Shown piece by piece: positions 3,077-59,790 of a stretch of 64,000 bases of DNA. The stretch is taken from contig DATIIB010000003.1 of the NCBI GenBank assembly GCA_035480055.1, positions 39,053 to 103,052 on the forward strand. The letters run 5' to 3'. Source of the stretch: Candidatus Saccharimonadales bacterium (GTDB taxonomy: Bacteria; Patescibacteriota; Saccharimonadia; Saccharimonadales; DASZAF01). A program made the translations under genes and the position numbers. Each line of letters begins with the position of its first letter. Positions within the stretch are counted from its first letter, which is position 1. A model generated the notes under the pieces. That model did no database searches. It was not told the DNA's origin and was given only the letters and a program-made list of their open reading frames with translations.

Positions 3077-3535
3077 ATGAAAAAAGACTACCAATTGACC
3101 AAAGAGGGTCGTACAGAATTAGAGAAAGAGTTAGAAGCCTTAAAATCGCGCCGCAGCGAGATCGCTGAAAAGATTAAAGCCGCCCGCGATTTTGGCGACT
3201 TGAGCGAGAACGCTGAATACGACGCTGCTCGTGACGAACAGGCACAGGTGGAAAGCCGTATCTCAGAAATCGAAGAGATCTTGCAGAACTCATCGCTTAT
3301 TGTGGGCACAAATGGCGATGGCACGATTGCTCTTGGCAGCAAAGTGACATTGGAATCCGAACGTGGTGTGGTTGAATACACCCTGGTGAGCTCTGTCGAG
3401 GCTGATCCAGCTGAAAAGAAAATCTCAGATGAATCACCAATCGGCCAGGCTCTGGTAGGCAAGAAACAAGGCGACGAAGTAGAGATTGCGACTCCCTCTG
3501 GGAGCGTTACCTTCAAGATTAAAAAGGTACAGTAG
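3077..3535 (+). CDS. greA: Transcription elongation factor GreA
   Basis: 152 aa with an N-terminal coiled coil (LTKEGRTELEKELEALK) and a C-terminal GreA/B domain. An AAAGGA SD lies 7 nt upstream. The ORF-track start at 2981 lies inside the -10 box and is rejected. Confidence 0.9.
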   Translation: MKKDYQLTKEGRTELEKELEALKSRRSEIAEKIKAARDFGDLSENAEYDAARDEQAQVESRISEIEEILQNSSLIVGTNGDGTIALGSKVTLESERGVVEYTLVSSVEADPAEKKISDESPIGQALVGKKQGDEVEIATPSGSVTFKIKKVQ

Positions 3536-3569
3536 TCCGCTCGTACCGTCACTTGATCTCAGCCAAACG

Positions 3570-3610
3570 ACCACCGTCTAAAATTTGAAGGGCGGTGGTT
3601 TCGCTTTCAG
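3570..3610 (+). terminator. Putative intrinsic terminator after greA
   Basis: Stem ACCACCG (3570-76)/CGGTGGT (3593-99) followed by TTTCGCTTTC. The loop is long and the U-tract interrupted. Confidence 0.4.
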
Positions 3611-3618
3611 GGGTGACC

Positions 3619-3627
3619 TGGTACAAT
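3619..3627 (+). promoter_or_regulatory. Extended -10 (TGGTACAAT) upstream of lysS
   Basis: 11 nt between the hexamer and ATG 3639. Confidence 0.5.
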
Positions 3628-3638
3628 AAAAAGCAATT

Positions 3639-5162
3639 ATGGCAACACTCAAAGAACTTCGCGACGAGCGACTTCGAAAGCTCGAAGAACTCAAAACTCT
3701 CGGTATTAATCCATATCCAGCTGAAAGTAATCGCACGCATGTACTGCGGGTGATTCACGACGATTTTGCGCAGCTAGAAGGCTTGGAAGTGAGCGTGACC
3801 GGGCGGATTACTAATATCCGTAAATTTGGCAAAATCGCTTTTGTGGTTATTAAAGACGCAAGCGGCACGCTGCAGCTTTTTTTGGGCGCTGACAAAATGG
3901 AACCACTGCAGGCGATGGATAGCCAAGTGGGATTCGATCAACTTCCACTCCTGGACAGCGGCGATTTTATCGAAGCACATGGGAAGGTTATCAAAACCAA
4001 GACTGACGAAATTTCAGTAGAAGTGGACAAAATCCGCTTGCTGTCCAAGAGCCTGCGACCGCTGCCAGCTTCGCACTCTGGTCTGACGAACAAAGAAGAG
4101 CGCTTACGCCGCCGTTATGTTGATACCAACATCAATCCAGATGTCTATCAGCGGTATATCCGTCGCAGCATGTTTTGGCAGGCCACACGCCACTTTTTGC
4201 TCGATAAAGATTTTATTGAGATTAATATTCCGGTACTCGAAAACACCACTGGTGGCGCAGATGCCACTCCATTTGTGACGCATATGGATGCGCTTGATCA
4301 AGATTTTTACTTGCGCATTAGCCACGAGCTCCCACTCAAACGCCTGCTGGTCGGTGGCTACGAAAAAGTTTTTGATATTGGTCCGCGCTTCCGCAACGAA
4401 AATTATTCCGACGAGCACCTTCCTGAGCATGTGGCCATGGAGTGGTATTGGGCCTATGCCGACTGGGAAATGGGCATGAAGCTCACCGAAGAAATGACTC
4501 GCTATGTGGCGGACAAAACGTGGGGCACGCGCCAATTTAAATTGCTCAATGGTCACGAGATAGACCTTGGCGCCGATGGCCAGGATTGGCCTCGTGTCAG
4601 TTTTGTAGAAGTGATCCGCGAGCACTATGGCATCGATGTATTTAACTGCACGCTCGAAGAAGTGCAAACCAAATTGAAAGAAAATAATCTGGAAGTAGAG
4701 AAGCAGGACAATAAAGCCCGCGGTATCGATAAATTGTGGAAGAAAATTCGGGTGACATTGCCTGGCCCTGCATTCTTAGTGGACATGCCGACCTTTTTGC
4801 AGCCCTTGGCCAAGACTCAGCCCGGTCATCCTGAGCTTACTGAGCAATTTAATATGATTTTGGGCGGCACCGAGGCCTGTAAGGCCTATTCGGAACTGAA
4901 TGATCCCATTGACCAACTACGCCGTTTTAAAGAGCAGCAGGCCATGCGAGACGCCGGCGATGACGAAGCACAGATGCTGGATATCGATTACGTGGAAGCT
5001 TTGGAATACGCGATGCCCCCAGCCTGTGGGTTTGGCTGGAGCGAACGACTTTTTTGGATGTGCGAAGGTGTCACCGCTCGCGAAGGTGTGGTCTTTCCGC
5101 AACTCAGACGCGATATCGACGAAGTAACCAAAGGAATCTATGGACCAGACATCCTCGGGTGA
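3639..5162 (+). CDS. lysS: Lysyl-tRNA synthetase, class II
   Basis: 507 aa with an N-terminal OB anticodon-binding domain and a class II core (FRNE, GGxxAxPF-like motifs). Confidence 0.9.
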   Translation: MATLKELRDERLRKLEELKTLGINPYPAESNRTHVLRVIHDDFAQLEGLEVSVTGRITNIRKFGKIAFVVIKDASGTLQLFLGADKMEPLQAMDSQVGFDQLPLLDSGDFIEAHGKVIKTKTDEISVEVDKIRLLSKSLRPLPASHSGLTNKEERLRRRYVDTNINPDVYQRYIRRSMFWQATRHFLLDKDFIEINIPVLENTTGGADATPFVTHMDALDQDFYLRISHELPLKRLLVGGYEKVFDIGPRFRNENYSDEHLPEHVAMEWYWAYADWEMGMKLTEEMTRYVADKTWGTRQFKLLNGHEIDLGADGQDWPRVSFVEVIREHYGIDVFNCTLEEVQTKLKENNLEVEKQDNKARGIDKLWKKIRVTLPGPAFLVDMPTFLQPLAKTQPGHPELTEQFNMILGGTEACKAYSELNDPIDQLRRFKEQQAMRDAGDDEAQMLDIDYVEALEYAMPPACGFGWSERLFWMCEGVTAREGVVFPQLRRDIDEVTKGIYGPDILG

Positions 5163-6669: not shown

Positions 6670-8271
6670 TTGATTTTGAGAAGTTTAGACGGATTCAACC
6701 GCCAAGATCGCATTCCCCGTCGTCCTCGGAAAGATGGGGGAACGGGTGCGCATCCTGGCTTTCAACTACCACAGCCGGTTGCCAAAGGCTCGCCTGCGAG
6801 TAACGCGGGCATTTCGCAGAATAAGGCCATCGACCTTGGGACTATTTCTCCTGACCTTGATATTGAGGAGCCGTCACGAAGCAAAAAACGCCGTCGAGGC
6901 CTTTTTGGACGCCGCCGCAAAGAAGGCAAAAAGCGCTGGAGCCGTCGCAAGAAGATTATTGTTAGTATTATTAGTGTTTTCCTGCTGGTCGGAGCTGCAA
7001 TTGGCGGCTACATGGGCTGGAAAGTGTTGCATTCTACGGCGCAGGTCTTTAAAGGGAATCCTTTTACAGCAGTTTTTAGCAATACTCCCCTCAAGACCGA
7101 TCAGTACGGACGGAGTAACATCTTGTTGTTTGGTACCTCCGAAGATGACCCTGGCCACCCTGGCGGCGACCTCACCGACTCTATTATGGTGATCAGTGTT
7201 GACCAAAAGCAGCACAACGCCTTTATTATGAGTGTCCCGCGCGATCTATGGGTGAAGTTTGATAAGACATGTGCCAGTGGTTATGCTGGCAAAATCAACG
7301 AAGTCTATCTGTGCGGCAAAACTGGCGGCGATGAAACTTCTGGCCAAGAGGCGCTGCGTTCCAAGGTGGGCGAAGTATTTGGCATGGATCTGCAATATGC
7401 TGTACATGTAAATTACGAAGTGCTTCGCAATTCAGTGGACGCGCTTGGCGGTGTAGACATCACCATTAATAGCGGCGATCCTCGAGGAATTCTTGATCGC
7501 AACTTTGACTGGCGCTGTAACTACAAGTGTTACCTGGTGAAATGGCCCAACGGTCCTGTTCACTTGGATGGCGAACATGCGCTCTACTTGTCGCAAGCTC
7601 GTAACGACGCCGGCGGCTACGGATTGCCTCGAGGTAACTTTGACCGTGAAGCCAACCAACGTAAGATTATGCTCGCCGCTAAAGACAAGGCAGCGTCTGT
7701 GGGCTTCCTGGCGAACCCAATCAAGGTGACTAAACTGATTGACTCACTTGGCCAGAATGTGCGCACCAACTTCCAAGCAGCAGAAATCAAAACATTGATT
7801 GACATTGCAAAGAACACCGATTCTAAGAGTATTCAATCGATCAGTCTCGTTGACCAAGTGCCGGCGCTGTTTACCACTGGCGCTGCACCAACTGGCGCGA
7901 GCATTGTGCGCCCAGCAACCAGCGGTCTGTATGACTATAGCGGTCTGTCTGCCTTTACCAAGGCGTATCTCTCGGGCAATGGCGCGCTCATCCAAGAAAA
8001 CGCTCAGGTTGATGTCTTGAACGGCACAAGCACGCCAGGCCTGGCTCAGACCAAGGCCGACGCCTTAGCCCAAGAGGGAATTAAGATCGGCGCAGTGAGC
8101 AATGTTCCGGACGGCACTTACAATAGCGTAAAACTCTATGACCTCAGTAAGGGCGCAAAGCCAGCGACCAAGAAAAAGCTGGAGCAGGTCCTTGGTATCA
8201 CCACTACCACCGAGCCTTTGCCAAGCACGGTCAAAAGTACTGCATCATTTGTAGTGATTGTCGGCCAGTAG
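6670..8271 (+). CDS. LytR-CpsA-Psr (LCP) family cell-wall glycopolymer transferase with LytR_C domain
   Basis: Basic cytoplasmic N-terminus, one TM, and an LCP core (NILLFGTSEDD...DSIMVISVD...SVPRDLWV). The C-terminal segment VDVLNGT..GLA is like LytR_C. Non-ATG start; exact start uncertain. Confidence 0.8.
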   Translation: MILRSLDGFNRQDRIPRRPRKDGGTGAHPGFQLPQPVAKGSPASNAGISQNKAIDLGTISPDLDIEEPSRSKKRRRGLFGRRRKEGKKRWSRRKKIIVSIISVFLLVGAAIGGYMGWKVLHSTAQVFKGNPFTAVFSNTPLKTDQYGRSNILLFGTSEDDPGHPGGDLTDSIMVISVDQKQHNAFIMSVPRDLWVKFDKTCASGYAGKINEVYLCGKTGGDETSGQEALRSKVGEVFGMDLQYAVHVNYEVLRNSVDALGGVDITINSGDPRGILDRNFDWRCNYKCYLVKWPNGPVHLDGEHALYLSQARNDAGGYGLPRGNFDREANQRKIMLAAKDKAASVGFLANPIKVTKLIDSLGQNVRTNFQAAEIKTLIDIAKNTDSKSIQSISLVDQVPALFTTGAAPTGASIVRPATSGLYDYSGLSAFTKAYLSGNGALIQENAQVDVLNGTSTPGLAQTKADALAQEGIKIGAVSNVPDGTYNSVKLYDLSKGAKPATKKKLEQVLGITTTTEPLPSTVKSTASFVVIVGQ

Positions 8272-8286: not shown

Positions 8287-10065
8287 ATGAAGCGGAAGAT
8301 AAGCTTGCTTGGCGCGATTGCCGCGCTGCTCATGCCGATATGGCTCATTCAGGCAAAGCCTGCTCACGCTAGCGCCAACGATTTTACTGTTAGTTCGTTC
8401 ACCGCAGACTATTACCTTGGTCGCGATAGCAATCAAGCCTCGCAGATGAAGGTTGATGAAAAAATCGTAGCCGAGTTTCCGAATTTTGACCAAAATCATG
8501 GTATCCTCCGAGCGATTCCTCAGACTTACAAAGGCCATTCGCTGCATTTGGCAATCCAAAAAGTGACCGACGGCAACGGTGCGTTGCTCCATTACAGCAG
8601 CTCGACCGCTAATGGTAATCTGGTGCTCAAAATTGGAGACGCCAAAACCTACGTGCACGGCACCCAAGCATATGACATTGTGTACACACTTCATGATGTG
8701 ACCACCGCGTATAGCGATCACGACGAACTCTATTGGGACGTCAATGGCGATCAATGGCCGCAAACCTTTGGCTCAGTCGTCGCTCACGTCCATATACCGA
8801 CCGACTTAGCGGATCGCTGGCAATCTGGTGGCCGTTGTTTTGTTGGTCAATACGGCGTAGCGGCCGAGCAGTGTCAGATGACTAGCTCGACCGAGGCCGG
8901 CGGAAAGGTCGAGACGATCACAAGCTCGCGACCTTTGCAGTCGCACGAAACGCTCACGTACGTCATGGGGTTTTCTCAAGCTACGTTCGGTACGTATCAT
9001 CGATCTACGAGTGAGATCGTCCGAGATATAGCGCTTGTGGTCGGGTTTGGCGTACTGCCGCCGCTGGTGGCAACCGGGGTGATGTTTACTCGGTGGCGCC
9101 GTCAGGGCAAAGACCCCAAAGGGCGCGGAACCATTGTGCCCGAGTACCTGCCGCCCACGGCAACCAGCGTGCTGGGCAGTGGGGTAGTGCTCAAAGAAAA
9201 ATTATTGCCAGCGGCAATCACCGCCCAGGTTATTGATCTTGCGGTGCGACATTATCTCAAGATTTATGAAGTCACAGTGGATCGTAAGATTCGTGCGGAC
9301 TACACGCAGTATGAGATCGAGCTGGTCCGTTCGCCGCAAGACTTGCGGACAGAAGAGCTCGAGGTGGTACATATACTGTTTGGCGATCACCCCAGCGTCG
9401 GCGCGCGCGTCCAACTCGAAAAGCTCAAAGCCAGCTTGTCCACAAAGGTACGTGCTTTAGGCAAAATGGTGAGTGCACGCGTTGCAGCCGAAGGGCTGTT
9501 TAAAGGCGACCCAGCTCGTGCCGCGCGTCCTTACACGACCGTAGGATCTGTGCTTATTGTGGCTGGTTTTTTTGTGCTGCCGTATTCGCTTGGTTTGGTT
9601 TTGGCAGGAGTGATTGTACTCGCTTTTGGCCATGCCATGCCAGTGCGTACACCCAAAGGCGTAACCCTCCGCGAGTATCTCTTGGGTCTTAAAATGTATA
9701 TGCAAGTTGCAGAGGCTGAACGAATCAAGATTTTGCAAAGCCCTCACGGCGAGCTCACCGAGAAGATCGATGTGAGTGACAAAACGCAATTGGTCAAACT
9801 GTACGAAAGGTTACTGCCATACGCAATGCTGTTTGGCATTGAACAAGACTGGGCCAAGGAATTCGCGTCATTGTATGAATCGCCACCAGATTGGTATGTG
9901 GGATCTTCCACCTTTAATGCCGTCTGGTTTGCCACAAGCCTGACCAGCTTTAGCGCGAGCAGTGCCAAAAGCTTTATGCCACCAAGTAGTTCGGGCGGAA
10001 GTGGTCTGGGTGGTGGTGGCTTCGCCGGCGGAGGCGGAGGCGGTGGTGGCGGCGGAGGCTGGTAG
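8287..10065 (+). CDS. DUF2207 family membrane protein with Gly-rich C-terminal tail
   Basis: Signal peptide, large extracytoplasmic N-domain, several TM helices and a terminal GGGGFAGGGGGGGGGGGW tail typical of DUF2207. Confidence 0.65.
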   Translation: MKRKISLLGAIAALLMPIWLIQAKPAHASANDFTVSSFTADYYLGRDSNQASQMKVDEKIVAEFPNFDQNHGILRAIPQTYKGHSLHLAIQKVTDGNGALLHYSSSTANGNLVLKIGDAKTYVHGTQAYDIVYTLHDVTTAYSDHDELYWDVNGDQWPQTFGSVVAHVHIPTDLADRWQSGGRCFVGQYGVAAEQCQMTSSTEAGGKVETITSSRPLQSHETLTYVMGFSQATFGTYHRSTSEIVRDIALVVGFGVLPPLVATGVMFTRWRRQGKDPKGRGTIVPEYLPPTATSVLGSGVVLKEKLLPAAITAQVIDLAVRHYLKIYEVTVDRKIRADYTQYEIELVRSPQDLRTEELEVVHILFGDHPSVGARVQLEKLKASLSTKVRALGKMVSARVAAEGLFKGDPARAARPYTTVGSVLIVAGFFVLPYSLGLVLAGVIVLAFGHAMPVRTPKGVTLREYLLGLKMYMQVAEAERIKILQSPHGELTEKIDVSDKTQLVKLYERLLPYAMLFGIEQDWAKEFASLYESPPDWYVGSSTFNAVWFATSLTSFSASSAKSFMPPSSSGGSGLGGGGFAGGGGGGGGGGGW

Positions 10066-24888: not shown

Positions 24889-26100
24889 GTGTTTATGGTT
24901 CATAAAACAGACATATTCCACGCTAAAATTCGAGCTTCCCTCAAGAGAGTAGCAGGGTATAGTGCCTTGGTTATTGCCGCATTAGCAATGATGTGTAGCT
25001 CGACGTTGCCGGTCTACGCCGATCAATACGATGATCAGATTAATGCGCTCAAGCAACAGCAGGCGCAGAGTCAAGCACAGGCCAACCAGCTTGGTGCCCA
25101 AGCAAATGATTTGCAAGGGCAGATTAATGTTCTTGAAAACCAGATTGCTTCGGTCCGCGCTCAGATCGCCGCAAACCAGCAGCGCTATAACGATTTATCA
25201 GGCCAGATTGACGTGGCCAAAAAGGAACTCGCTCATCAGCGCGAAGTCCTTGGTAAAAACATTAAGGCGATGTACATTGAAGGAAAAGTTTCGACCGTTG
25301 AGATGCTTGCCTCGAGTAAAAATATCAGCGAATATCTTGATAAACAGCAGTACCGAAACACCGTAAAAGATAAAATATCAGACACGATTGTTTCTATTAA
25401 AGATCTCGAGAAACAACTCGCCGATCAGCAAGCAGAAGTGGTCAAGCTGCTCGATACGCAAAAGACTTTGCAGGCCGATCTTGCTGCCAAGCAGTCGGAG
25501 GCTGACCAAAAGCTGGCGCAAACTAATCAGGCCAAGTCGCAATTCGACACGCAAGTGGCTGATTTGGCAGCACAAATCGGACAGCTCAAGAGCGCCCAGG
25601 CACAAATGTATGCCAACCTGTCGGCCGGCGGGAGCTCAATCGCTAGCAAAGGTGCGTATGGTTCATTGCAATGGCGCAACAAAACAGCGGGTGTCAACTG
25701 TGGTGGCGGGTATGACTCGCAGCTTTGTAGCGCGTATCCTGATTCGATCATTGATTCCTGGCAGCTCTATAACCGAGAATGTGTCTCGTATGCAGCGTGG
25801 GCTATGCAGTATCGCTTTGGCCACCATGTCTCTGGCTTCCATGGAGCAGGCAACGCCTACCAGTGGCCAGGCACGGTTCCTGCGAATGGCGATGGCTACA
25901 CCGATGAGACCCCAGCTTCTGGCTCAGTCGTCATTATTCCACCTTCGATTATCGGTGGTGTAGGTCACGCAGCAGTTGTGGAGCAGGTGTATGGCGATGG
26001 TTGGATTCGAGTAAGCCAATATAACTTCGACCCGTATGCATATAGCACCATGGACCTCAAGGTTGTCTCTGGGCTGGCGTTCGTGCACTTTACGCATTAG
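24889..26100 (+). CDS. Secreted coiled-coil + CHAP-domain peptidoglycan hydrolase (PcsB-like)
   Basis: Signal peptide (…LPVYA/DQ) followed by ~220 aa of Q/A/L-rich coiled coil. The C-terminal CHAP domain has a catalytic Cys (NRECVSYAAW) and His (GHAAVVE). Alternative ATG start at 24895. Confidence 0.8.
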   Translation: MFMVHKTDIFHAKIRASLKRVAGYSALVIAALAMMCSSTLPVYADQYDDQINALKQQQAQSQAQANQLGAQANDLQGQINVLENQIASVRAQIAANQQRYNDLSGQIDVAKKELAHQREVLGKNIKAMYIEGKVSTVEMLASSKNISEYLDKQQYRNTVKDKISDTIVSIKDLEKQLADQQAEVVKLLDTQKTLQADLAAKQSEADQKLAQTNQAKSQFDTQVADLAAQIGQLKSAQAQMYANLSAGGSSIASKGAYGSLQWRNKTAGVNCGGGYDSQLCSAYPDSIIDSWQLYNRECVSYAAWAMQYRFGHHVSGFHGAGNAYQWPGTVPANGDGYTDETPASGSVVIIPPSIIGGVGHAAVVEQVYGDGWIRVSQYNFDPYAYSTMDLKVVSGLAFVHFTH

Positions 26101-26428
26101 GAACTCCTGGGTTCGCCCTTCAATCCTCCTACGATCCTCCCTTCAGCCCACTCCACAACTCCCACCCGCGGACTGTCCTCCTTGTTGGTAGCAGCGATAT
26201 ATCTGTTGTTTGGAAATGGATAGTCTTAGTATTTTATGTCCGCTCTTCGAGCGGCACATCTAGCCACCACTAATTCTCAAGTTCAAGAATGAACGGGTGA
26301 CACCTGACGGGGCTGCCCCAAAATTGTTTTATGTATTCATAAAAAATTTAGGGGCGGATCAGGTGGCAGGACCCGTGGAGTATGCTGAAGGGTGGAGCGT
26401 GGGAGAGGAGGGGCGGATCAGGGGAGGT
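26101..26428. other. 328-nt structured non-coding region filling the convergent gap between the CHAP hydrolase and femX-like genes; candidate ncRNA or MITE-like element
   Basis: The pyrimidine-rich left arm (26133-26156) is 20/24 complementary to the purine-rich right arm (26375-26398). Contains the core hairpin, a small CCGCTC-TTC-GAGCGG hairpin and two copies of GGGGCGGATCAGG (26351-63, 26410-22). Confidence 0.6.
26291..26380 (+). repeat. Copy 1 of a ~90-nt long-hairpin repeat element
   Basis: 83/90 identical to the reverse complement of 57885-57974. Folds into a ~35-bp imperfect hairpin with an AT-rich apex (GTTTTATG-TATT-CATAAAA). Confidence 0.85.
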
Positions 26429-27427
26429 TTAATGCCGCAATCTAGTTTTAAGAGCTTGCGCCCATTTCCAAGGATGATACAGCGGCTGGAGTGGAATATC
26501 ATACGCGGGTACATACTCGATCACCTCGCCGCCAAAACGCAGCTTAAACTGCGTTACCCCTTGCAGGCCGGGGTAATTTTTGCTGCCAATTCCCAAAAAG
26601 TCGTAGCTCCGTACACCTTCGTCTTTGAGCTGACGCATTATTTCAACGTGAAGAAGATAAGGCGCACTGACTTTCCGAGCTGCCTCATTGCTTGCGCCGT
26701 AGTAATAAATAGCTTGATTATTGAAGACGGTGTCGATGGCCCAGGCGATAGGTGATGCGCCTTCAAAGGCGACAAAAAAGCGCACCGTTCCGTCCAAGGA
26801 TTTGAGCATTGATTGATAGGTGCTGGCCGGGTGGACGTAGAATCCATCGCGCGAGGCAGTCTCGCTGAGAATGGCGTAGTAAGGTGCAAAATCAGCTGCT
26901 GCTTCAAGAGCTGGCACTTCGCGTATGGTAATTCCTGATTTGGCAGCTTTACGCATTCCGCGGCGTGCTCCATAGTCCATTCGCTCCAGGATTGTCTCGA
27001 AGTCGGGCGTCAAATCCACCACGGTTGTTTTTTCGATAAGTGACTTAGAATATGCCGGAAGCCCTTTGGCAGGCGGTTTGGGAAAATGCGCCCGGATGAA
27101 TAATGGCCGCGCAGTGCTTGCTTCCGCAACAACATCACGCAGCGTTTTCGCCACGTCATCGACAATAGCTTGGGTTGGTTCGACCAGCCAGGTGGGACCT
27201 TGATTAAGCCAAATGTAGCTATATCCGCGCATTGTTAATTCAACAGCATTCAAGAGTGCAACTTCTTGTTCGTTTTGACGGATCAAAAAAGTACCAAGAG
27301 ACCGTCGCCCAGGAATCGTGGATTGAAACTCTCCCCAGAGAGGGGATTGCTCAATTGGAAAGCGCGTCTCGGGGTGAGAGTGAATAAGTTTGGTGTACAG
27401 CTCTGCACTAATTTTTTCAGCTCGCAT
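26429..27427 (-). CDS. FemABX-family peptidoglycan-bridge aminoacyltransferase (FemX-like)
   Basis: 332 aa. The C-terminal pattern YYYGASNEAARKVSAPYLLHVEIMRQLKDEGVRSYDFLGIG is typical of the FemAB/lipid II aminoacyltransferase family. An AAGGA SD lies upstream of ATG 27427. Confidence 0.75.
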   Translation of the reverse strand: MRAEKISAELYTKLIHSHPETRFPIEQSPLWGEFQSTIPGRRSLGTFLIRQNEQEVALLNAVELTMRGYSYIWLNQGPTWLVEPTQAIVDDVAKTLRDVVAEASTARPLFIRAHFPKPPAKGLPAYSKSLIEKTTVVDLTPDFETILERMDYGARRGMRKAAKSGITIREVPALEAAADFAPYYAILSETASRDGFYVHPASTYQSMLKSLDGTVRFFVAFEGASPIAWAIDTVFNNQAIYYYGASNEAARKVSAPYLLHVEIMRQLKDEGVRSYDFLGIGSKNYPGLQGVTQFKLRFGGEVIEYVPAYDIPLQPLYHPWKWAQALKTRLRH

Positions 27428-27463
27428 ACAGATTATCCTTACGGCTATCTTTTTGGGTATCAG

Positions 27464-27478
27464 CATGATAATATCATG
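27464..27478. promoter_or_regulatory. Perfect 7-1-7 palindrome CATGATA-A-TATCATG in the femX-like/ctpA divergent promoter region
   Basis: Reads as an extended -10-like TGATAATAT on the + strand and TGATATTAT on the - strand. Possible shared operator or overlapping divergent promoters. Confidence 0.4.
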
Positions 27479-27509
27479 AAAGTAACGACAATCTCTAGAA
27501 GGTGAGTAC

Positions 27510-28727
27510 ATGGGATATATGGCAAGTCAGCAAAAAATGGTGGCAAAGTTAAAAAATTGGGGCCGAAAATCGGTACCCTTTATAATTGTGGCAGTAATTG
27601 CTTTTGGCATGGGCGTCAAGCTAAGTGGCTTCGACCTTACCTCACTTGAAAGAAATAAAAATAGCAAAGCGCCAGCAGACCTTAACTACACGTCTGTCGA
27701 GCAGTTATACGACCGACTGCGCCAAAAGTATGATGGTAACCTCGACGCGGAAAAACTTATCGACGGCATGAAGAAAGGCTTGGTTGAAGCAACTGGCGAC
27801 CCATATACGACCTACTTTACGCCCAAAGAAAGCCAAGACTTCCAGGATTCGCTCGATGGGAAATTCTCTGGTATTGGTGCCGAGCTTGGCAAAAAGGACG
27901 GCCAGTTGGTGGTGGTTTCTCCTCTGGAAGGCTTCCCAGCTCAAAAAGCAGGCGTGAAGACTGGCGATATTATCTTGCAAGTAAATGGCGAAGATGCCAG
28001 CAAATGGAGCGTTGACCAAGCGGTGAGCAAAATCCGCGGTGATAAAGGCACGACAGTTAAAATTCAAGTGGCTCGCGACCAAAAGCCGCTCGAATTTACC
28101 ATCACCCGCGATGACATCACCATTCCAAGCGTGAAGTACGAAGTAACCAGCGACAACATTGGTTATATGCAAATCTCACGCTTTGCCGAAGACACCGGGG
28201 CATTAGCTCAAAAGGCTGCCGATGAATTCAAGAGCAAGAATGTCAAAGGCGTGGTGCTCGATCTTCGCGGTGATGGCGGTGGTTATCTCGACGCAGCAGT
28301 CTCAGTGTCAAGCTTGTGGCTAGACAACGGCCAGACGGTGGTTCAAGAACGCCAGGGCAACAAAGTTGTTGATACTCTGCAGGCAAAGGGCGGCAATGTG
28401 CTCAAGGGATTTCCAACGGTGGTATTGATTGATGGCGGCTCAGCCAGTGCCAGTGAGATTACTGCTGGTGCGCTCCAAGACACCGCCAATGCCAAACTGG
28501 TCGGCGTCAAAAGCTTTGGAAAGGGCAGCGTTCAAGAGTTGCAAAAACTCAACGACGGATCTGAACTCAAGGTGACGGTAGCTCGCTGGTACACACCAAA
28601 AGGTAAAAACATTGACAAAGAAGGTATCTCGCCTGATATTGAAGTCAAGATGAACGACGACGATGTGGCGGCAAATCGGGACCCGCAAAAAGACCGCTCA
28701 TTCTCTTTCATCAATACTAAGCAATAA
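27510..28727 (+). CDS. ctpA: Carboxy-terminal processing (S41) peptidase with PDZ domain
   Basis: N-terminal TM, PDZ domain (GIGAELG...GFPAQKAGVKTGDIIL) and an S41 core (DLRGDGGGYL, GSASASEI, SFGKGSVQ). Confidence 0.85.
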   Translation: MGYMASQQKMVAKLKNWGRKSVPFIIVAVIAFGMGVKLSGFDLTSLERNKNSKAPADLNYTSVEQLYDRLRQKYDGNLDAEKLIDGMKKGLVEATGDPYTTYFTPKESQDFQDSLDGKFSGIGAELGKKDGQLVVVSPLEGFPAQKAGVKTGDIILQVNGEDASKWSVDQAVSKIRGDKGTTVKIQVARDQKPLEFTITRDDITIPSVKYEVTSDNIGYMQISRFAEDTGALAQKAADEFKSKNVKGVVLDLRGDGGGYLDAAVSVSSLWLDNGQTVVQERQGNKVVDTLQAKGGNVLKGFPTVVLIDGGSASASEITAGALQDTANAKLVGVKSFGKGSVQELQKLNDGSELKVTVARWYTPKGKNIDKEGISPDIEVKMNDDDVAANRDPQKDRSFSFINTKQ

Positions 28728-43977: not shown

Positions 43978-44093
43978 CTCAGTCGCGCAACATGCTAGCG
44001 CCTTTCTTGAAAGTACGGCATACTACATAGAGCAAGAGCACACCACGTGTGACTCTTTCTTTTATGCTAAAACTAACAAGGAAATACAGACAC

Positions 44094-45071
44094 ATGGACC
44101 AAGACCAACAGCAGCAACAGCCCTCACTCCATCAACAAGAGACCGATATTTTTGCCTGGGCCGGCCATGTGGAAAGCGCCAGAGACGCCTTGGAAGTGGA
44201 TCTGTATTTGTTTAACAAAAAATACACCGTGTATAGTGCCCATGTTGCGCGCGAGTTAGAACTGCAGCTCAAGCAGCTCTTTCTGTTTGAAATGCTTAAT
44301 TACGTGTCCTCAGGACCTGATCAGGGCATGGTGGTGCGAACTTTTGAGGAAGCCGAAGGTGAAGAGCTGGTGATTCAGCGAACCCAGCTGGCAAATGTGG
44401 AAAACGCGACATATATCTTGCATCAGATTGAAGAACCGGACGAGGAAGTGCAGCTTTTCCGCGATGATGAACATGACTTCAAACGTATCAAAGGTATTGT
44501 GGCGCGTTTTTCGCACCCCAGTATGCCGCGACCGTTTTACGTGGTGAAGCTGGTGCAGCAATCGCAGGTGCTAAAGGGCAAAACGGCTTGGCTGCTGGAT
44601 GGCAACAGCTTTAAGCCATTTACCGCTGATGCCGGTTTTAAAGTTGCGCCAGATAATCAGGTGGTCATTGTGGCAGAGGATATCTTCGTCTTTAATCAAC
44701 GCCGATTTGAAACCCTTTTTGGCTACAATGCCAAGCAACAACTTATTGCCAAGCAAAAGGTGGCCCAGATCGAAAACCTCTACAAGCTGAGCTTTCCAGA
44801 AGGTATGGACCTTAATAGCCTGGTCAAAGACAAAAAAAGCACGATCAAAAAGTTGCAGAACCTTGAAGTTGGCCGCGTTAAGCAAGACGAGCTATTGGAT
44901 CACGCCGAAGAGATGGGCGTGGAGCTCATGACCGACGAAGGCGGAGCGATTATCATCATGGATGGCAAAGATCTGGATAAGTTTGTTAATTTGCTCAACG
45001 ATGATTATGTGGAGTCGGGCTTAACCGGCACTAAGTATGAGATTCGCGGCAAACGAGTGCTTGGCGAATAA
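44094..45071 (+). CDS. Hypothetical protein, possibly DUF4868/KwaB-like
   Basis: 325 aa with a Gln-rich N-terminus. Overall length and sequence style (…DIFVFNQRRFETLFGY…, C-terminal LLNDDYVESGLTGTKY) remind me of DUF4868 proteins. Unverified without an HMM search. AAGGAAA SD upstream of ATG 44094. Confidence 0.35.
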   Translation: MDQDQQQQQPSLHQQETDIFAWAGHVESARDALEVDLYLFNKKYTVYSAHVARELELQLKQLFLFEMLNYVSSGPDQGMVVRTFEEAEGEELVIQRTQLANVENATYILHQIEEPDEEVQLFRDDEHDFKRIKGIVARFSHPSMPRPFYVVKLVQQSQVLKGKTAWLLDGNSFKPFTADAGFKVAPDNQVVIVAEDIFVFNQRRFETLFGYNAKQQLIAKQKVAQIENLYKLSFPEGMDLNSLVKDKKSTIKKLQNLEVGRVKQDELLDHAEEMGVELMTDEGGAIIIMDGKDLDKFVNLLNDDYVESGLTGTKYEIRGKRVLGE

Positions 45072-56128: not shown

Positions 56129-56418
56129 GCGCAAGCAAGCCCTTGTTCATTAACAATTTGGCGACACAAGCAAAGCTTACGGCTCACTCCGAGGTCAGCT
56201 ATCTGGTAGTCAGTGGATGGCAGGTGAACACCATCAAAAGTAACGTTCAAGTACCTTATGCGAAAGCACAATAAAACACCTCCCAAAAAAACTCCACCTC
56301 ACACATAAGTCTCTCAAAAAACACTTAATGGGCTTTTCACTTAGAGATTTTCTTAGTAAAATCTCTCCACTACAACAGCTCCATTACACAAAAACAAAAA
56401 CATTGCACAAAAAACAAA

Positions 56419-56424
56419 TATACT
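56419..56424 (+). promoter_or_regulatory. -10-like TATACT upstream of rsmH (possible internal dcw promoter)
   Basis: 13 nt to GTG 56438 and 25 nt to ATG 56450. Confidence 0.3.
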
Positions 56425-56449
56425 GACTACTAGATAGGTGACCTCGAGA

Positions 56450-57358: not shown

Positions 57359-57361
57359 ATC

Positions 57362-57436
57362 ATGAGACAGACTATCCACGTCAAGATCAAAGACCTTACT
57401 CCAAAAGCTTACGAAGTACTGGTTCGCCAGGGCTAA
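57362..57436 (+). CDS. Possible 24-aa small ORF (MRQTIHVKIKDLTPKAYEVLVRQG)
   Basis: The ATG lies 7 nt after an AAAGGAG SD embedded in the rsmH 3' end. No conservation evidence is available. Confidence 0.15.
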   Translation: MRQTIHVKIKDLTPKAYEVLVRQG

Positions 57437-57447
57437 GCAAGCTTTTC

Positions 57448-57486
57448 GAGACTCACCAGCCACAAAAACAAAGGCTGGTGAGTCTC
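57448..57486 (+). other. Perfect 14-bp hairpin between rsmH and ftsL (not terminator-like)
   Basis: GAGACTCACCAGCC (57448-61), an 11-nt A/C loop, then GGCTGGTGAGTCTC (57473-86). Followed by an A-rich tract rather than a T-tract. Confidence 0.7.
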
Positions 57487-57524
57487 ACCAAAATAAAAAA
57501 TAAAAATAAGAAAGAATTCCACCA

Positions 57525-57860
57525 ATGTCTCAGTATGCTGCTGCAACCATGGAATCTCGCATGTGGCGACGCAACCAAAATACGGTGCGACATCAGATCG
57601 AAAAAGGTGGCCTCGGACCTGTAGCCCACGTAGTGTTAATTGCATTAATGCTGTGTGTGTTGGGCCTGATTTATCTTACGCAAATCACCAAAACAAGTAC
57701 GTACGGCTACGAGATTCAAAAATTACAATCGCAAAAAACTGCCCTTGCAGACCAAAAGCAGGTCTTGCAGGTTGAAGCCGCCAGATTGCAGGCTCTCGAC
57801 CAAGTGAAGAAGGGGAGTGTCGGCATGGTGCAGCCTGCGAATACGGATTACGTGCAGTAG
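57525..57860 (+). CDS. ftsL: Cell division protein FtsL-like (septum formation initiator)
   Basis: 111 aa with a short cytoplasmic tail, one TM and an extracytoplasmic leucine-zipper-like coiled coil. Sits at the canonical dcw position. Confidence 0.7.
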   Translation: MSQYAAATMESRMWRRNQNTVRHQIEKGGLGPVAHVVLIALMLCVLGLIYLTQITKTSTYGYEIQKLQSQKTALADQKQVLQVEAARLQALDQVKKGSVGMVQPANTDYVQ

Positions 57861-57884
57861 ATGTTAAAGATGATCTCCCTCAAC

Positions 57885-57974
57885 CTCCGCGGGTCCTGTC
57901 GCCTGATCCGCCCCTAAATTTTTTATGAATACATAAAACAATTTTGGGGCAGCCCCGTCAGGCACCACCCGCTC
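57885..57974 (-). repeat. Copy 2 of the ~90-nt long-hairpin repeat element (opposite orientation), between ftsL and ftsI
   Basis: The reverse complement aligns base-for-base with 26291-26380. Differences are concentrated in one stem segment and preserve pairing. Confidence 0.85.
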
Positions 57975-58041
57975 GTACCATGTGGAAGACGAGATGTTCG
58001 TAAGCGAAGTCTTGAGGGGAAAATGATAAAATGAAACATAA

Positions 58042-59790
58042 ATGAACCAACAAAGAACAACCATACACCGAGCCCATATGCTGTGGGGGTTTTTGGCGAT
58101 TTGCGGGTTGTTATTTGGAGTTCGTTTATTTTACTTGCAAGTTTTGCGCCATGATTATTACGAGACGCAAGCGGTTGCTGAACATCAAAAGAAGTTTGTG
58201 CTCCCCGCCAAGCGTGGGCTGATTTACGCTCATGACCGAACCGGCATTACACCGCTCGTCCTCAACCAACCGGTGTTTCTCCTGTACGCTGATCCGCGCT
58301 ACGTCCGCGACCCCAAGGCAACCGCTGAAACGATTGCTCATTACGTGGGCGGCGATATTAGTGAGTATCAAAAATTGCTCTCCCAGAGTGATCACTCATA
58401 TGTGGTGCTGGCCAAAAAGATCACCAAGAATCAAGCTGATGGCATTACCAAAGCGCAACTATACGGAGTGGGGCTCACTCAATCTGAAGAGCGGGTCTAT
58501 CCCGAAGGCGAGCTTGGCGCGCAGATGCTGGGCTTTGTCAACGACGAAGGGGTAGGGCAGTATGGCCTGGAAGGCGCGTTGGATGATCGTTTGCACGGCA
58601 CAGATGGTTTGTTAAAGGCGGTGACCGATGTGCGCGGTATTCCGCTTTCGATTACCAATCAGAATGTCATGAAGCCAGCCCAAGATGGGGCTAACGTGGT
58701 TCTCTCGGTTGATCGCAATGTGCAAGGCTACGCCGAGCAGGCCCTAAAGGCCGGACTGGATAAAGTGCATGCGACCAAAGGCAGCGCCTTGGTGATGGAC
58801 CCTCAAACCGGCGAAGTCATCGCCATGGCAAACTACCCAACGTACGATCCGTCTAAATATACCGATGTCAAAGATTACTCAGTCTTCCAGAACAAGACGG
58901 TCAGCGATCCGTACGAGGCCGGTTCGGACATTAAAGTACTGACCATGTCGGCTGGGATAAACGAAAACGTGGTGCACAAAACCACGCAATTCGACAATCG
59001 CAATCAAGTGCAAGTGGGCGACGCCACGATCCACAATGTAGAGCAACACACTGGGCCAACCACTATGCAACAGGTACTGGACCTGTCGCTTAACACTGGA
59101 GTGGTGTTTGTGCTGCAGCAACTTGGCGGCGGGAGCATCAACTACCAGGCGCGGCAGAAATTCTTCCATTACTTTACGGATAAGTTTGGCTTTGGTAAAA
59201 AGACCGGCATTGAGCAGGCCGGCGAAGCTCCGGGCTACATCTTTTCGCCCGACGATGAACAGGGCAATAATGTGCGATACGCCAACATGACGTTTGGACA
59301 GGGGATGACCGAAAGCATGATTCAGGTCGCTTCGGCTTTCAGTAGTGTCATTAATGGCGGCACCTACTACCAGCCGCATCTGGTGAGCGGGACCTATAAT
59401 GCTGACACAGAGCAGGTTACCAAGGAACTCCCCAAGGTTGAGCGAAGTGGCGTGGTTACTGCAGCAACTTCGGCTGAGATTCGCGACATGATTATTACCG
59501 CGCTGCGTGACACCCCAGCCCTGAAGGCTGCGAACCGCGCTGGCTATAACATTGGAGGTAAGACGGGCACCTCGCAGATTATCGATCCAAAGACGGGCCA
59601 GTATTCGGATAACAATGCGATCGGGACCTATGTCGGTTTCGGTGGTAATGAGACCCCTAAATATGTGATAATGGTACGTGTTGATGATTCTCAAGCCGGC
59701 GGCTATGCTGGTTCGGCCGCGGCCGCGCCTATCTTCGCCGATATCTCCAACTGGTTGCTTGATTACTATAAGATTCCGCCCGTAAAATAA
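58042..59790 (+). CDS. ftsI: Penicillin-binding protein 2B/FtsI-type transpeptidase
   Basis: N-terminal TM, PBP dimerisation domain and transpeptidase motifs (SxxK-type AGSDIKV, SLN, KTGTS). Confidence 0.9.
   Translation: MNQQRTTIHRAHMLWGFLAICGLLFGVRLFYLQVLRHDYYETQAVAEHQKKFVLPAKRGLIYAHDRTGITPLVLNQPVFLLYADPRYVRDPKATAETIAHYVGGDISEYQKLLSQSDHSYVVLAKKITKNQADGITKAQLYGVGLTQSEERVYPEGELGAQMLGFVNDEGVGQYGLEGALDDRLHGTDGLLKAVTDVRGIPLSITNQNVMKPAQDGANVVLSVDRNVQGYAEQALKAGLDKVHATKGSALVMDPQTGEVIAMANYPTYDPSKYTDVKDYSVFQNKTVSDPYEAGSDIKVLTMSAGINENVVHKTTQFDNRNQVQVGDATIHNVEQHTGPTTMQQVLDLSLNTGVVFVLQQLGGGSINYQARQKFFHYFTDKFGFGKKTGIEQAGEAPGYIFSPDDEQGNNVRYANMTFGQGMTESMIQVASAFSSVINGGTYYQPHLVSGTYNADTEQVTKELPKVERSGVVTAATSAEIRDMIITALRDTPALKAANRAGYNIGGKTGTSQIIDPKTGQYSDNNAIGTYVGFGGNETPKYVIMVRVDDSQAGGYAGSAAAAPIFADISNWLLDYYKIPPVK

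Follow-up and report, generated by a model that had tools for sequence, protein, structure and literature searches.

A 90-nt element that folds into one long hairpin occurs twice, in opposite orientation, in the 64,000-nt stretch of Candidatus Saccharimonadales DNA that was analysed (hereafter, the window). FtsI and FemAB homologues placed the window in a Saccharibacteria (Saccharimonadales) MAG, GCA_964479845.1, on the 143.6-kb contig CAYZNG010000003.1. On the sequence evidence laid out below, we see about an even chance that the element belongs with the small palindromic repeats of the MITE, REPIN or Correia-ERIC kind, as a lineage-specific, non-autonomous member for which we infer mobility. 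The coordinates of both copies, of their surroundings and of the corresponding spacers in relatives are collected in Table 1.

Table 1. Features of the two element loci in the window and of corresponding spacers in related genomes.
Feature	Genome	Position	Strand	Length	Remarks
Copy 1 of the 90-nt hairpin element	window	26291-26380	+	90 nt	32 pairs; invariant core 26303-26363
Copy 2 of the 90-nt hairpin element	window	57885-57974	-	90 nt	inverted relative to copy 1; invariant core 57902-57962
CHAP-domain hydrolase gene	window	24889-26100	+		downstream of ftsE/ftsX
FemAB gene	window	26429-27511	-		convergent with CHAP gene
Outer palindrome, left pyrimidine-rich arm	window	26095-26172	+		pairs with 26373-26435
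Outer palindrome, right purine-rich arm	window	26373-26435	+		overlaps final bases of copy 1
Third exact GGGGCGGATCAGG	window	26410-26422	+		in outer right arm; z 6.8
CCTGGGTTCGCCC, degenerate pairing partner of 26410-26422	window	26106-26118	+		in outer left arm; compare the element's CCTGATCCGCCCC, reverse strand
ftsL-ftsI spacer	window	57861-58041	+	181 nt	holds copy 2
ftsL-ftsI spacer	L033			169 nt	FtsI 73% identical to window; short, different hairpin
ftsL-ftsI spacer	L037			268 nt	FtsI 73% identical to window; ~220-nt hairpin, z -6.6
ftsL-ftsI spacer	L047/L048			20 nt	FtsI 65% identical to window; empty
mraZ-mraW spacer	window	56129-56449	+
mraZ-mraW spacer	L033	8108-8423
mraZ-mraW spacer	L037	8013-8324
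mraZ-mraW spacer	L047	2255-2566

Realignment of the two copies reproduced the ungapped identity at 83 of 90 positions that the first-pass annotation had reported, and a pattern built on a 31-nt core occurs exactly twice in the window, with 0 occurrences expected from shuffles. Homology between the copies stops at the base of the hairpin, and the flanks beyond it are unrelated. A repeat longer than the hairpin was rejected on both sides, as the similarity of the tails on the 3' side was not significant (p 0.53) and an extension on the 5' side requires many gaps. The 3' stem of the element, GGGGCGGATCAGG, has three exact occurrences in the window, compared with 0.04 expected, and the element also contains a perfect 11-bp palindrome, GGGGCTGCCCC. 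Two full copies and one fragment are thus present in about 70 kb of annotated sequence, which comprises the window and ~5.8 kb beyond it (L031). The pseudo-peptide that the copies had been noted to share was confirmed as the translation of the sole frame open across the whole element, and it had no match among 5.8 billion predicted proteins. A coding reading was dropped because this search, a six-frame query, had no match; judged by its sequence, the 90-nt element is non-coding.

Both copies were predicted to form the same unbranched, single hairpin. The extended hairpin proposed at first reading therefore stands, with a stem of 32 pairs instead of ~35 bp. Folding energies as RNA were -40.2 kcal/mol (z -5.4) for copy 1 and -41.8 kcal/mol (z -4.9) for copy 2, and as ssDNA the element adopts the same structure (-25 kcal/mol, z -6.4). 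Folds of the complementary strands are a little weaker (-36.0 and -39.3 kcal/mol for copies 1 and 2, respectively) because U-G pairs turn into A-C mismatches. Fold stability was rejected as a means of choosing the functional strand, as the strands of the element are only 2.5-4 kcal/mol apart and DNA and RNA folds are equally good. A kink-turn in the internal loop was also rejected, since the A that it requires is a G in copy 2.

The seven differences between the copies (element positions 3, 10, 11, 12, 74, 76, and 86) are all transitions, and all of them fall in the basal 29 nt, which are 76% identical, with the central 61 nt identical throughout. Two pairs carry compensatory changes from A-U to G-C, namely 12:74 and, in the basal helix of the common structure, 3:86; pair 11:75 changes from C-G to U-G, and internal loop positions 10 and 76 are swapped from A/G to G/A. 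None of the seven differences breaks a pair. The changes from A-T to G-C and from C-G to T-G that the first-pass annotation described within a 4-bp segment correspond to pairs 12:74 and 11:75, and its statement that pairing is kept was borne out, with pair 3:86 as a second compensatory change that it had overlooked. In a simulation of seven random transitions, the probability that all pairs stay intact, with two or more of them changed on both sides, was about 0.002. Under uniform placement, the probability of 0 differences in the 61-nt core and 7 in the 29-nt base was about 0.00025, and this very uneven divergence argues against a simple neutral recent duplication. The structural inference rests on n = 2 sequences, a number at which the shuffle control of the covariation tool is uninformative.

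A constraint on the hairpin is plausible from these comparisons. The earlier proposal of selection on a hairpin rather than passive duplication agrees with pairing kept beyond chance and with the uneven divergence; what it left joined, an RNA or a mobile DNA hairpin, stays joined, as compensatory changes alone do not separate these two in our analysis. Compensatory changes across REPIN hairpins were reported to be common by Bertels and Rainey (PMC3116915), and such changes are therefore no indication of an RNA gene by themselves.

Both copies lie beside cell-division or cell-wall genes, as had been noted from the letters, copy 1 in the spacer between the CHAP and FemAB genes and copy 2 between ftsL and ftsI. 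The CHAP/FemAB spacer is 328 nt long; copy 1 starts 190 nt past the CHAP stop codon, and 48 nt separate its end from the FemAB stop codon. From stop codon to stop codon (26095-26435), the whole spacer folds into one compound hairpin of ~340 nt, in which copy 1 is nested together with smaller hairpins (-155.9 kcal/mol and z -8.4 for the + strand, -138.1 kcal/mol for the - strand). Alignment of the outer arms gave 46 matches, 7 + 3 wobble-type mismatches and 5 other mismatches; the G-U counts of the outer palindrome (7 vs. 3) do not differ significantly and were discarded as a basis for choosing a strand. The third exact GGGGCGGATCAGG and its degenerate partner, one in each outer arm, read as a decayed or older partial copy of the element's middle stem.

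Several smaller observations were made at this locus. The outer palindrome reaches into both convergent genes (26095-26100 and 26429-26435). The CHAP and FemAB genes both end in ...CAT plus a stop codon, and their last codons pair with each other, possibly by coincidence. Upstream of copy 1, a small stable hairpin at 26236-26259 (+) consists of CCGCTC-TTC-GAGCGG extended by flanking pairs and has a T-rich run before it, not after it.

Orthologous CHAP/FemAB spacers from two relatives (L039 and L041) were also whole-spacer palindromes, that is, in 3 of 3 genomes examined, and their sequences are unrelated. The L039 spacer measures 310 nt (z -8.2) and takes part in a 324-nt multi-branch fold at 3452-3775, and the L041 spacer measures 160 nt (z -12.6 for 6997-7170), with an outer stem of 29 perfect base pairs around a canonical bidirectional terminator. 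So perfect a long stem suggests that the palindrome arose recently, as DNA, rather than having been maintained over a long time at the level of RNA.

Copy 2 is located within the dcw cluster mraZ-rsmH-ftsL-ftsI-mraY-ftsW-murG, between ftsL (57525-57860) and ftsI (58042-59790). It starts 24 nt past the ftsL stop codon and ends 67 nt before the start of the ftsI ORF, or 103 nt before the ftsI start of the public gene call. The fillers of this spacer in the window, L033, and L037 showed no significant similarity to each other, nor did those of the relatives to the element, and the FtsI proteins of L033 and L037 are 81% identical. Homology of the element to the L033 hairpin looked suggestive in a MAFFT alignment and was rejected, as local-alignment scores were the same as those of shuffles. 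The arms of the L037 hairpin (9733-9990) are made of tandem ~20-nt modules, GTCATCCTGA and GTCATGCTGAGC. In the outgroup L047/L048, where the spacer is empty, the FtsL C-termini and FtsI starts are orthologous to those of the window (stop and start codons). The GGGGCGGATCAGG motif was absent from the relatives' loci, and none of the palindromes of L041, L039, and L037 had a second copy in the ~20 kb covered in each genome. The mraZ-mraW and mraW-ftsL spacers, unlike ftsL-ftsI, can still be aligned across the relatives examined. The simplest reading of the ftsL-ftsI site would be that palindromic DNA has been inserted or replaced there repeatedly and independently.

Only the CHAP/FemAB spacer and three dcw spacers were unusually structured in the window, the 13 other spacers being ordinary. 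The mraZ-mraW (rsmH) spacer is about 310 nt long in four Saccharibacteria, and its conservation is far above that predicted from the flanking proteins. It contains a long-range helix of ~27 bp, formed by CTCCGAGGTCAGCTATCTGGTAGTCAGTG with CTGACTACTAGATAGGTGACCTCGAG just upstream of rsmH, which encloses an invariant A/C-rich tract, AAAACACCTCCCAAAAAAACTCCACCTCACACATAAGTCTCTC, with an anti-Shine-Dalgarno-like CCTCC. The fold is stronger on the + strand (z -5.8) than on the - strand (z -1.5), and the spacer had no Rfam match, making it a candidate for a structured dcw-operon leader or ncRNA not described before. Two strong hairpins (z -6.8) lie in the mraW-ftsL spacer (57359-57524), at 57402-57446 and 57448-57486. 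In the second, the 14-bp stem is perfect, the tract behind it is A-rich instead of U-rich, and neither strand forms a canonical terminator; its structure is kept in L033 and L037, with six compensatory pairs.

Searches for known families, further copies and partner enzymes were consistently negative. At gathering thresholds there were 0 Rfam matches in the whole window, in agreement with the earlier reading that saw no signature of a riboswitch, ribozyme, SRP, tmRNA, RNase P, or 6S RNA; at permissive thresholds, the sole matches in the vicinity of the element were to generic models of miRNA-precursor hairpins, which scored 17-19 bits where 72-102 would be needed. No tRNA or tmRNA gene was present in the window. 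Across 185,579 species genomes of GTDB, a gapped 21-base pattern (GGGGCTGCCCCN{25,40}GGGGCGGATC) gave 30 matches, all of them chance matches of the pattern blocks alone in high-GC genomes, and no further copy. A 20-mer scan of JGI metagenomes likewise gave a single chance match without the 3' arm and no further copy, and the element was not found in two scans of IMG/VR or in BLAST searches of plasmids and phages. Sensitive BLAST over the window and related loci revealed no new copy, and a covariance model built from both copies recovered, in 160 kb of the same material, only those copies and same-strain fragments. Pfam scans of the window ORFs together with the annotations of L031 showed housekeeping genes, with no transposase, RAYT, IS200-type gene, integrase, or reverse transcriptase in ~70 kb. 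As to the earlier suggestion of an IS200/REP-type ssDNA hairpin, the element folds equally well as DNA, and the ~70 kb contain neither a RAYT nor an IS200-type gene. Among the housekeeping genes, an ORF at 44049-45071 (+) encodes a KwaB-like domain of the Kiwa anti-phage system (PF16162, E 1e-13). We found no description of palindromic repeats in Saccharibacteria in the literature.

In Logan assemblies of short reads from the same strain, contigs break off within the element (L032, 1-44; contig ends of L043 and L044). In the relative L042, a contig end falls inside a perfect palindrome that is single-copy, and assembly breaks were therefore discarded as a sign that the element is multicopy. 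Long hairpins break de Bruijn assemblies in these genomes, and such elements are therefore probably under-represented in public MAGs.

The element was also compared with the defining features of known classes. REP and REPIN sequences have conserved ends and a variable spacer, whereas here the core is identical and the differences are basal; by sequence reading, the arms contain no foldable sub-palindrome. A REPIN doublet was rejected on this inverted conservation and on arms without REP-like sub-palindromes. Of the two hallmarks of a MITE, terminal inverted repeats and a target-site duplication, the inverted repeats are given by the arms by construction, and sequence reading revealed no duplication at either copy; ATGA/GGAG, which border the homology at copy 1, and ACGA/GGAG, which border it at copy 2, are not direct repeats. 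No IS element that could be a MITE parent was present in the window. A scan for intrinsic terminators returned nothing at either copy, and the tails of the element (GGAGUAUG and GGAGGUUG on one strand, UUCAUUCUUG and UCGUACCAUG on the other) have no terminator-like U tract. A Rho-independent terminator, which requires a GC-rich stem of 5-20 bp directly followed by a U tract, was rejected because that tract is missing. An integron attC site was rejected as well, as there is no GTTRRRY at the 3' end, the 5' AATGAAC and TACGAGC do not fit RYYYAAC, and the window encodes no integrase.

Polycistronic mRNAs can carry intercistronic or 3' stabiliser hairpins, such as the REP stabilisers of the malEFG operon in E. 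coli. The element resembles these in its place just past a stop codon in or at the end of an operon, in its long stable stem and in the missing U tract, but such stabilisers are usually locus-specific and kept at orthologous positions, whereas the element has 92%-identical copies at unlinked loci. REPINs of Pseudomonas and Enterobacteria (PMC3116915) are, like the element, extragenic and non-coding, form one hairpin of ~90-100 nt in ssDNA or mRNA, occur in both orientations and in nested or clustered arrangements, and commonly show compensatory changes. However, a REPIN consists of two REP units in inverted arrangement, its ends conserved and its spacer variable, and REPINs are present in tens to hundreds of copies and flank a RAYT gene, in contrast to the invariant centre, variable ends, and 2-3 copies of the element, with no RAYT in about 70 kb. 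The Correia elements of Neisseria (PMC2649163), ERIC/IRU, RUP/BOX, SMAG, and Rickettsia palindromic elements share with it the form of ~100-150 nt of inverted-repeat DNA in spacers, including spacers within operons. Elements of these families are also lineage-specific and co-transcribed, with hairpins that RNase III can bind or cut, which can alter the expression of neighbouring genes; co-transcription and RNase III processing are described for Correia elements (PMC2649163). These families nevertheless number tens to hundreds of copies, are bounded by defined terminal inverted repeats with target-site duplications (TA in Correia) and often have an IS relative; apart from inverted arms, no such feature was found for the element. 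Because it has no target-site duplication, no partner enzyme in about 70 kb, a low copy number, and an inverted conservation, we assign the element to the general palindromic-repeat kind only, neither to REPINs nor to a specific MITE or other named family, and hold this assignment to be about as probable as its opposite.

Weighing these data, a palindromic insertion is favoured by a repeated unit that coincides with one 90-nt hairpin and sits in two unlinked intergenic spacers in opposite orientations, by an ftsL-ftsI spacer that is empty in the outgroup and filled with unrelated hairpins in sister genomes, by the nesting of copy 1 in a larger palindrome that carries the degenerate stem motif, by unusual structure confined to cell-envelope spacers of the window, and by substitutions that preserve pairs. 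Against a mobile repeat stand the count of only two full copies and one fragment in about 70 kb, with none in the public collections searched, and the missing target-site duplication, together with the lack of a transposase, RAYT, integrase, or reverse transcriptase in the window or L031; for a MITE or REPIN, moreover, the conservation is inverted, as the ends vary and the centre is invariant. We consider doubtful, if possible, that the element is instead a dedicated cis-acting RNA hairpin common to two peptidoglycan and division transcripts, at which RNase III would process the transcript, the message upstream would be stabilised at its 3' end, or a shared RNA-binding regulator would attach, with the core as the recognised part. 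Such a hairpin would fit the cell-envelope context of both loci, to which strong structure in the window is restricted. Its copies become co-oriented when the - strand is read at copy 1 (the femAB 3' UTR) and the + strand at copy 2 (intercistronic between ftsL and ftsI), with a stop codon 24-48 nt before each; the core is invariant, all changes are pair-preserving transitions with possible wobble intermediates, and the mraW-ftsL hairpin with its six compensatory pairs indicates that the same operon uses conserved hairpins. However, the co-oriented strand is the one that folds less well (-36.0 and -39.3 vs. -40.2 and -41.8 kcal/mol), its U-G pairs having become A-C mismatches, the element has neither a terminator-like U tract nor an Rfam family, and the ftsL-ftsI spacer is empty in the outgroup and differently filled in sister genomes. 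Judged by locus context, inserted palindromic DNA is more likely than a dedicated RNA gene, and in our analysis the mobile-element and RNA readings are compatible with each other rather than exclusive.

Passive segmental duplication of an existing hairpin, for example of a part of 26095-26435 copied once to ftsL-ftsI and having neither mobility nor function, we regard as quite unlikely. Only two copies are known and copy 1 is embedded in a larger palindrome, both as such an event would have it, and the pair-preserving changes would then stem from intrastrand template switching in the palindrome, not from selection; template switching in quasi-palindromes can yield complementary double changes in a single event and is thus a possible source of them. 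The duplicated unit, however, matches the boundaries of the hairpin, divergence is 0/61 in the core against 7/29 at the base, the A/G to G/A swap at 10/76 and the wobble at 11:75 are not products of template switching, and relatives repeatedly carry unrelated hairpins at these sites. That a protein (a regulator, nucleoid protein, or recombinase) binds the element as double-stranded or cruciform DNA, at a site centred on GGGGCTGCCCC and the thrice-repeated GGGGCGGATCAGG, appears very unlikely: the motif count of three against 0.04 expected, the invariant 61-nt core and the equal folding of both strands as DNA would suit it, but a site of this type does not need 32 self-complementary base pairs and leaves the basal compensatory changes unexplained, the motif is missing at the relatives' loci, and no candidate binding protein was identified. 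More far-reaching, and in our estimation unlikely, is a proposal with two forms. Either the hairpin serves regulation or processing at both loci, as a site for a protein or RNase III that would couple the expression of femAB and ftsI, and belongs to a wider, undescribed structured-RNA layer in the cell-envelope operons of Saccharibacteria, the same dcw cluster having the strongly conserved, structured ~310-nt mraZ-mraW spacer and the covarying mraW-ftsL hairpin; or it marks an undescribed way of making and moving palindromes in CPR genomes without known hairpin transposases.

If the element is a non-autonomous palindromic repeat, as we prefer to read it, palindromic DNA would have been repeatedly inserted or copied into the few permissive spacers of a compact genome, with pre-existing hairpins probably favoured as targets. 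An intact hairpin would be required, either while it is mobilised as ssDNA or in the RNA after co-transcription, and we propose that this need accounts for the transition-only, pair-preserving changes. The invariant 61-nt core may be what an enzyme acting in trans, from a gene elsewhere, recognises, or may have been kept uniform through gene conversion. Copy 2, being inside the dcw operon, would be present in that mRNA as a duplex of roughly 30 bp, and could take on a secondary role as an RNase III or stability site, as is the case for known palindromic repeats.

From the literature that we found, interspersed palindromic repeats are apparently undescribed so far in Saccharibacteria or other CPR bacteria, whose ~1-Mb genomes have very little non-coding DNA. 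A new RNA class is not supported for the element, and a family of two copies is a modest addition to the well-known class of palindromic repeats; more interesting as leads are the mraZ-mraW spacer, conserved and structured, and the palindromes that recurrently fill whole spacers at orthologous sites. If the element is mobile, it would mean that even the reduced genomes of these epibionts tolerate hairpin DNA, with fast turnover in a few spacers. The essential dcw operon contains one of these spacers, and a 30-bp mRNA duplex there would likely affect the expression of ftsI.
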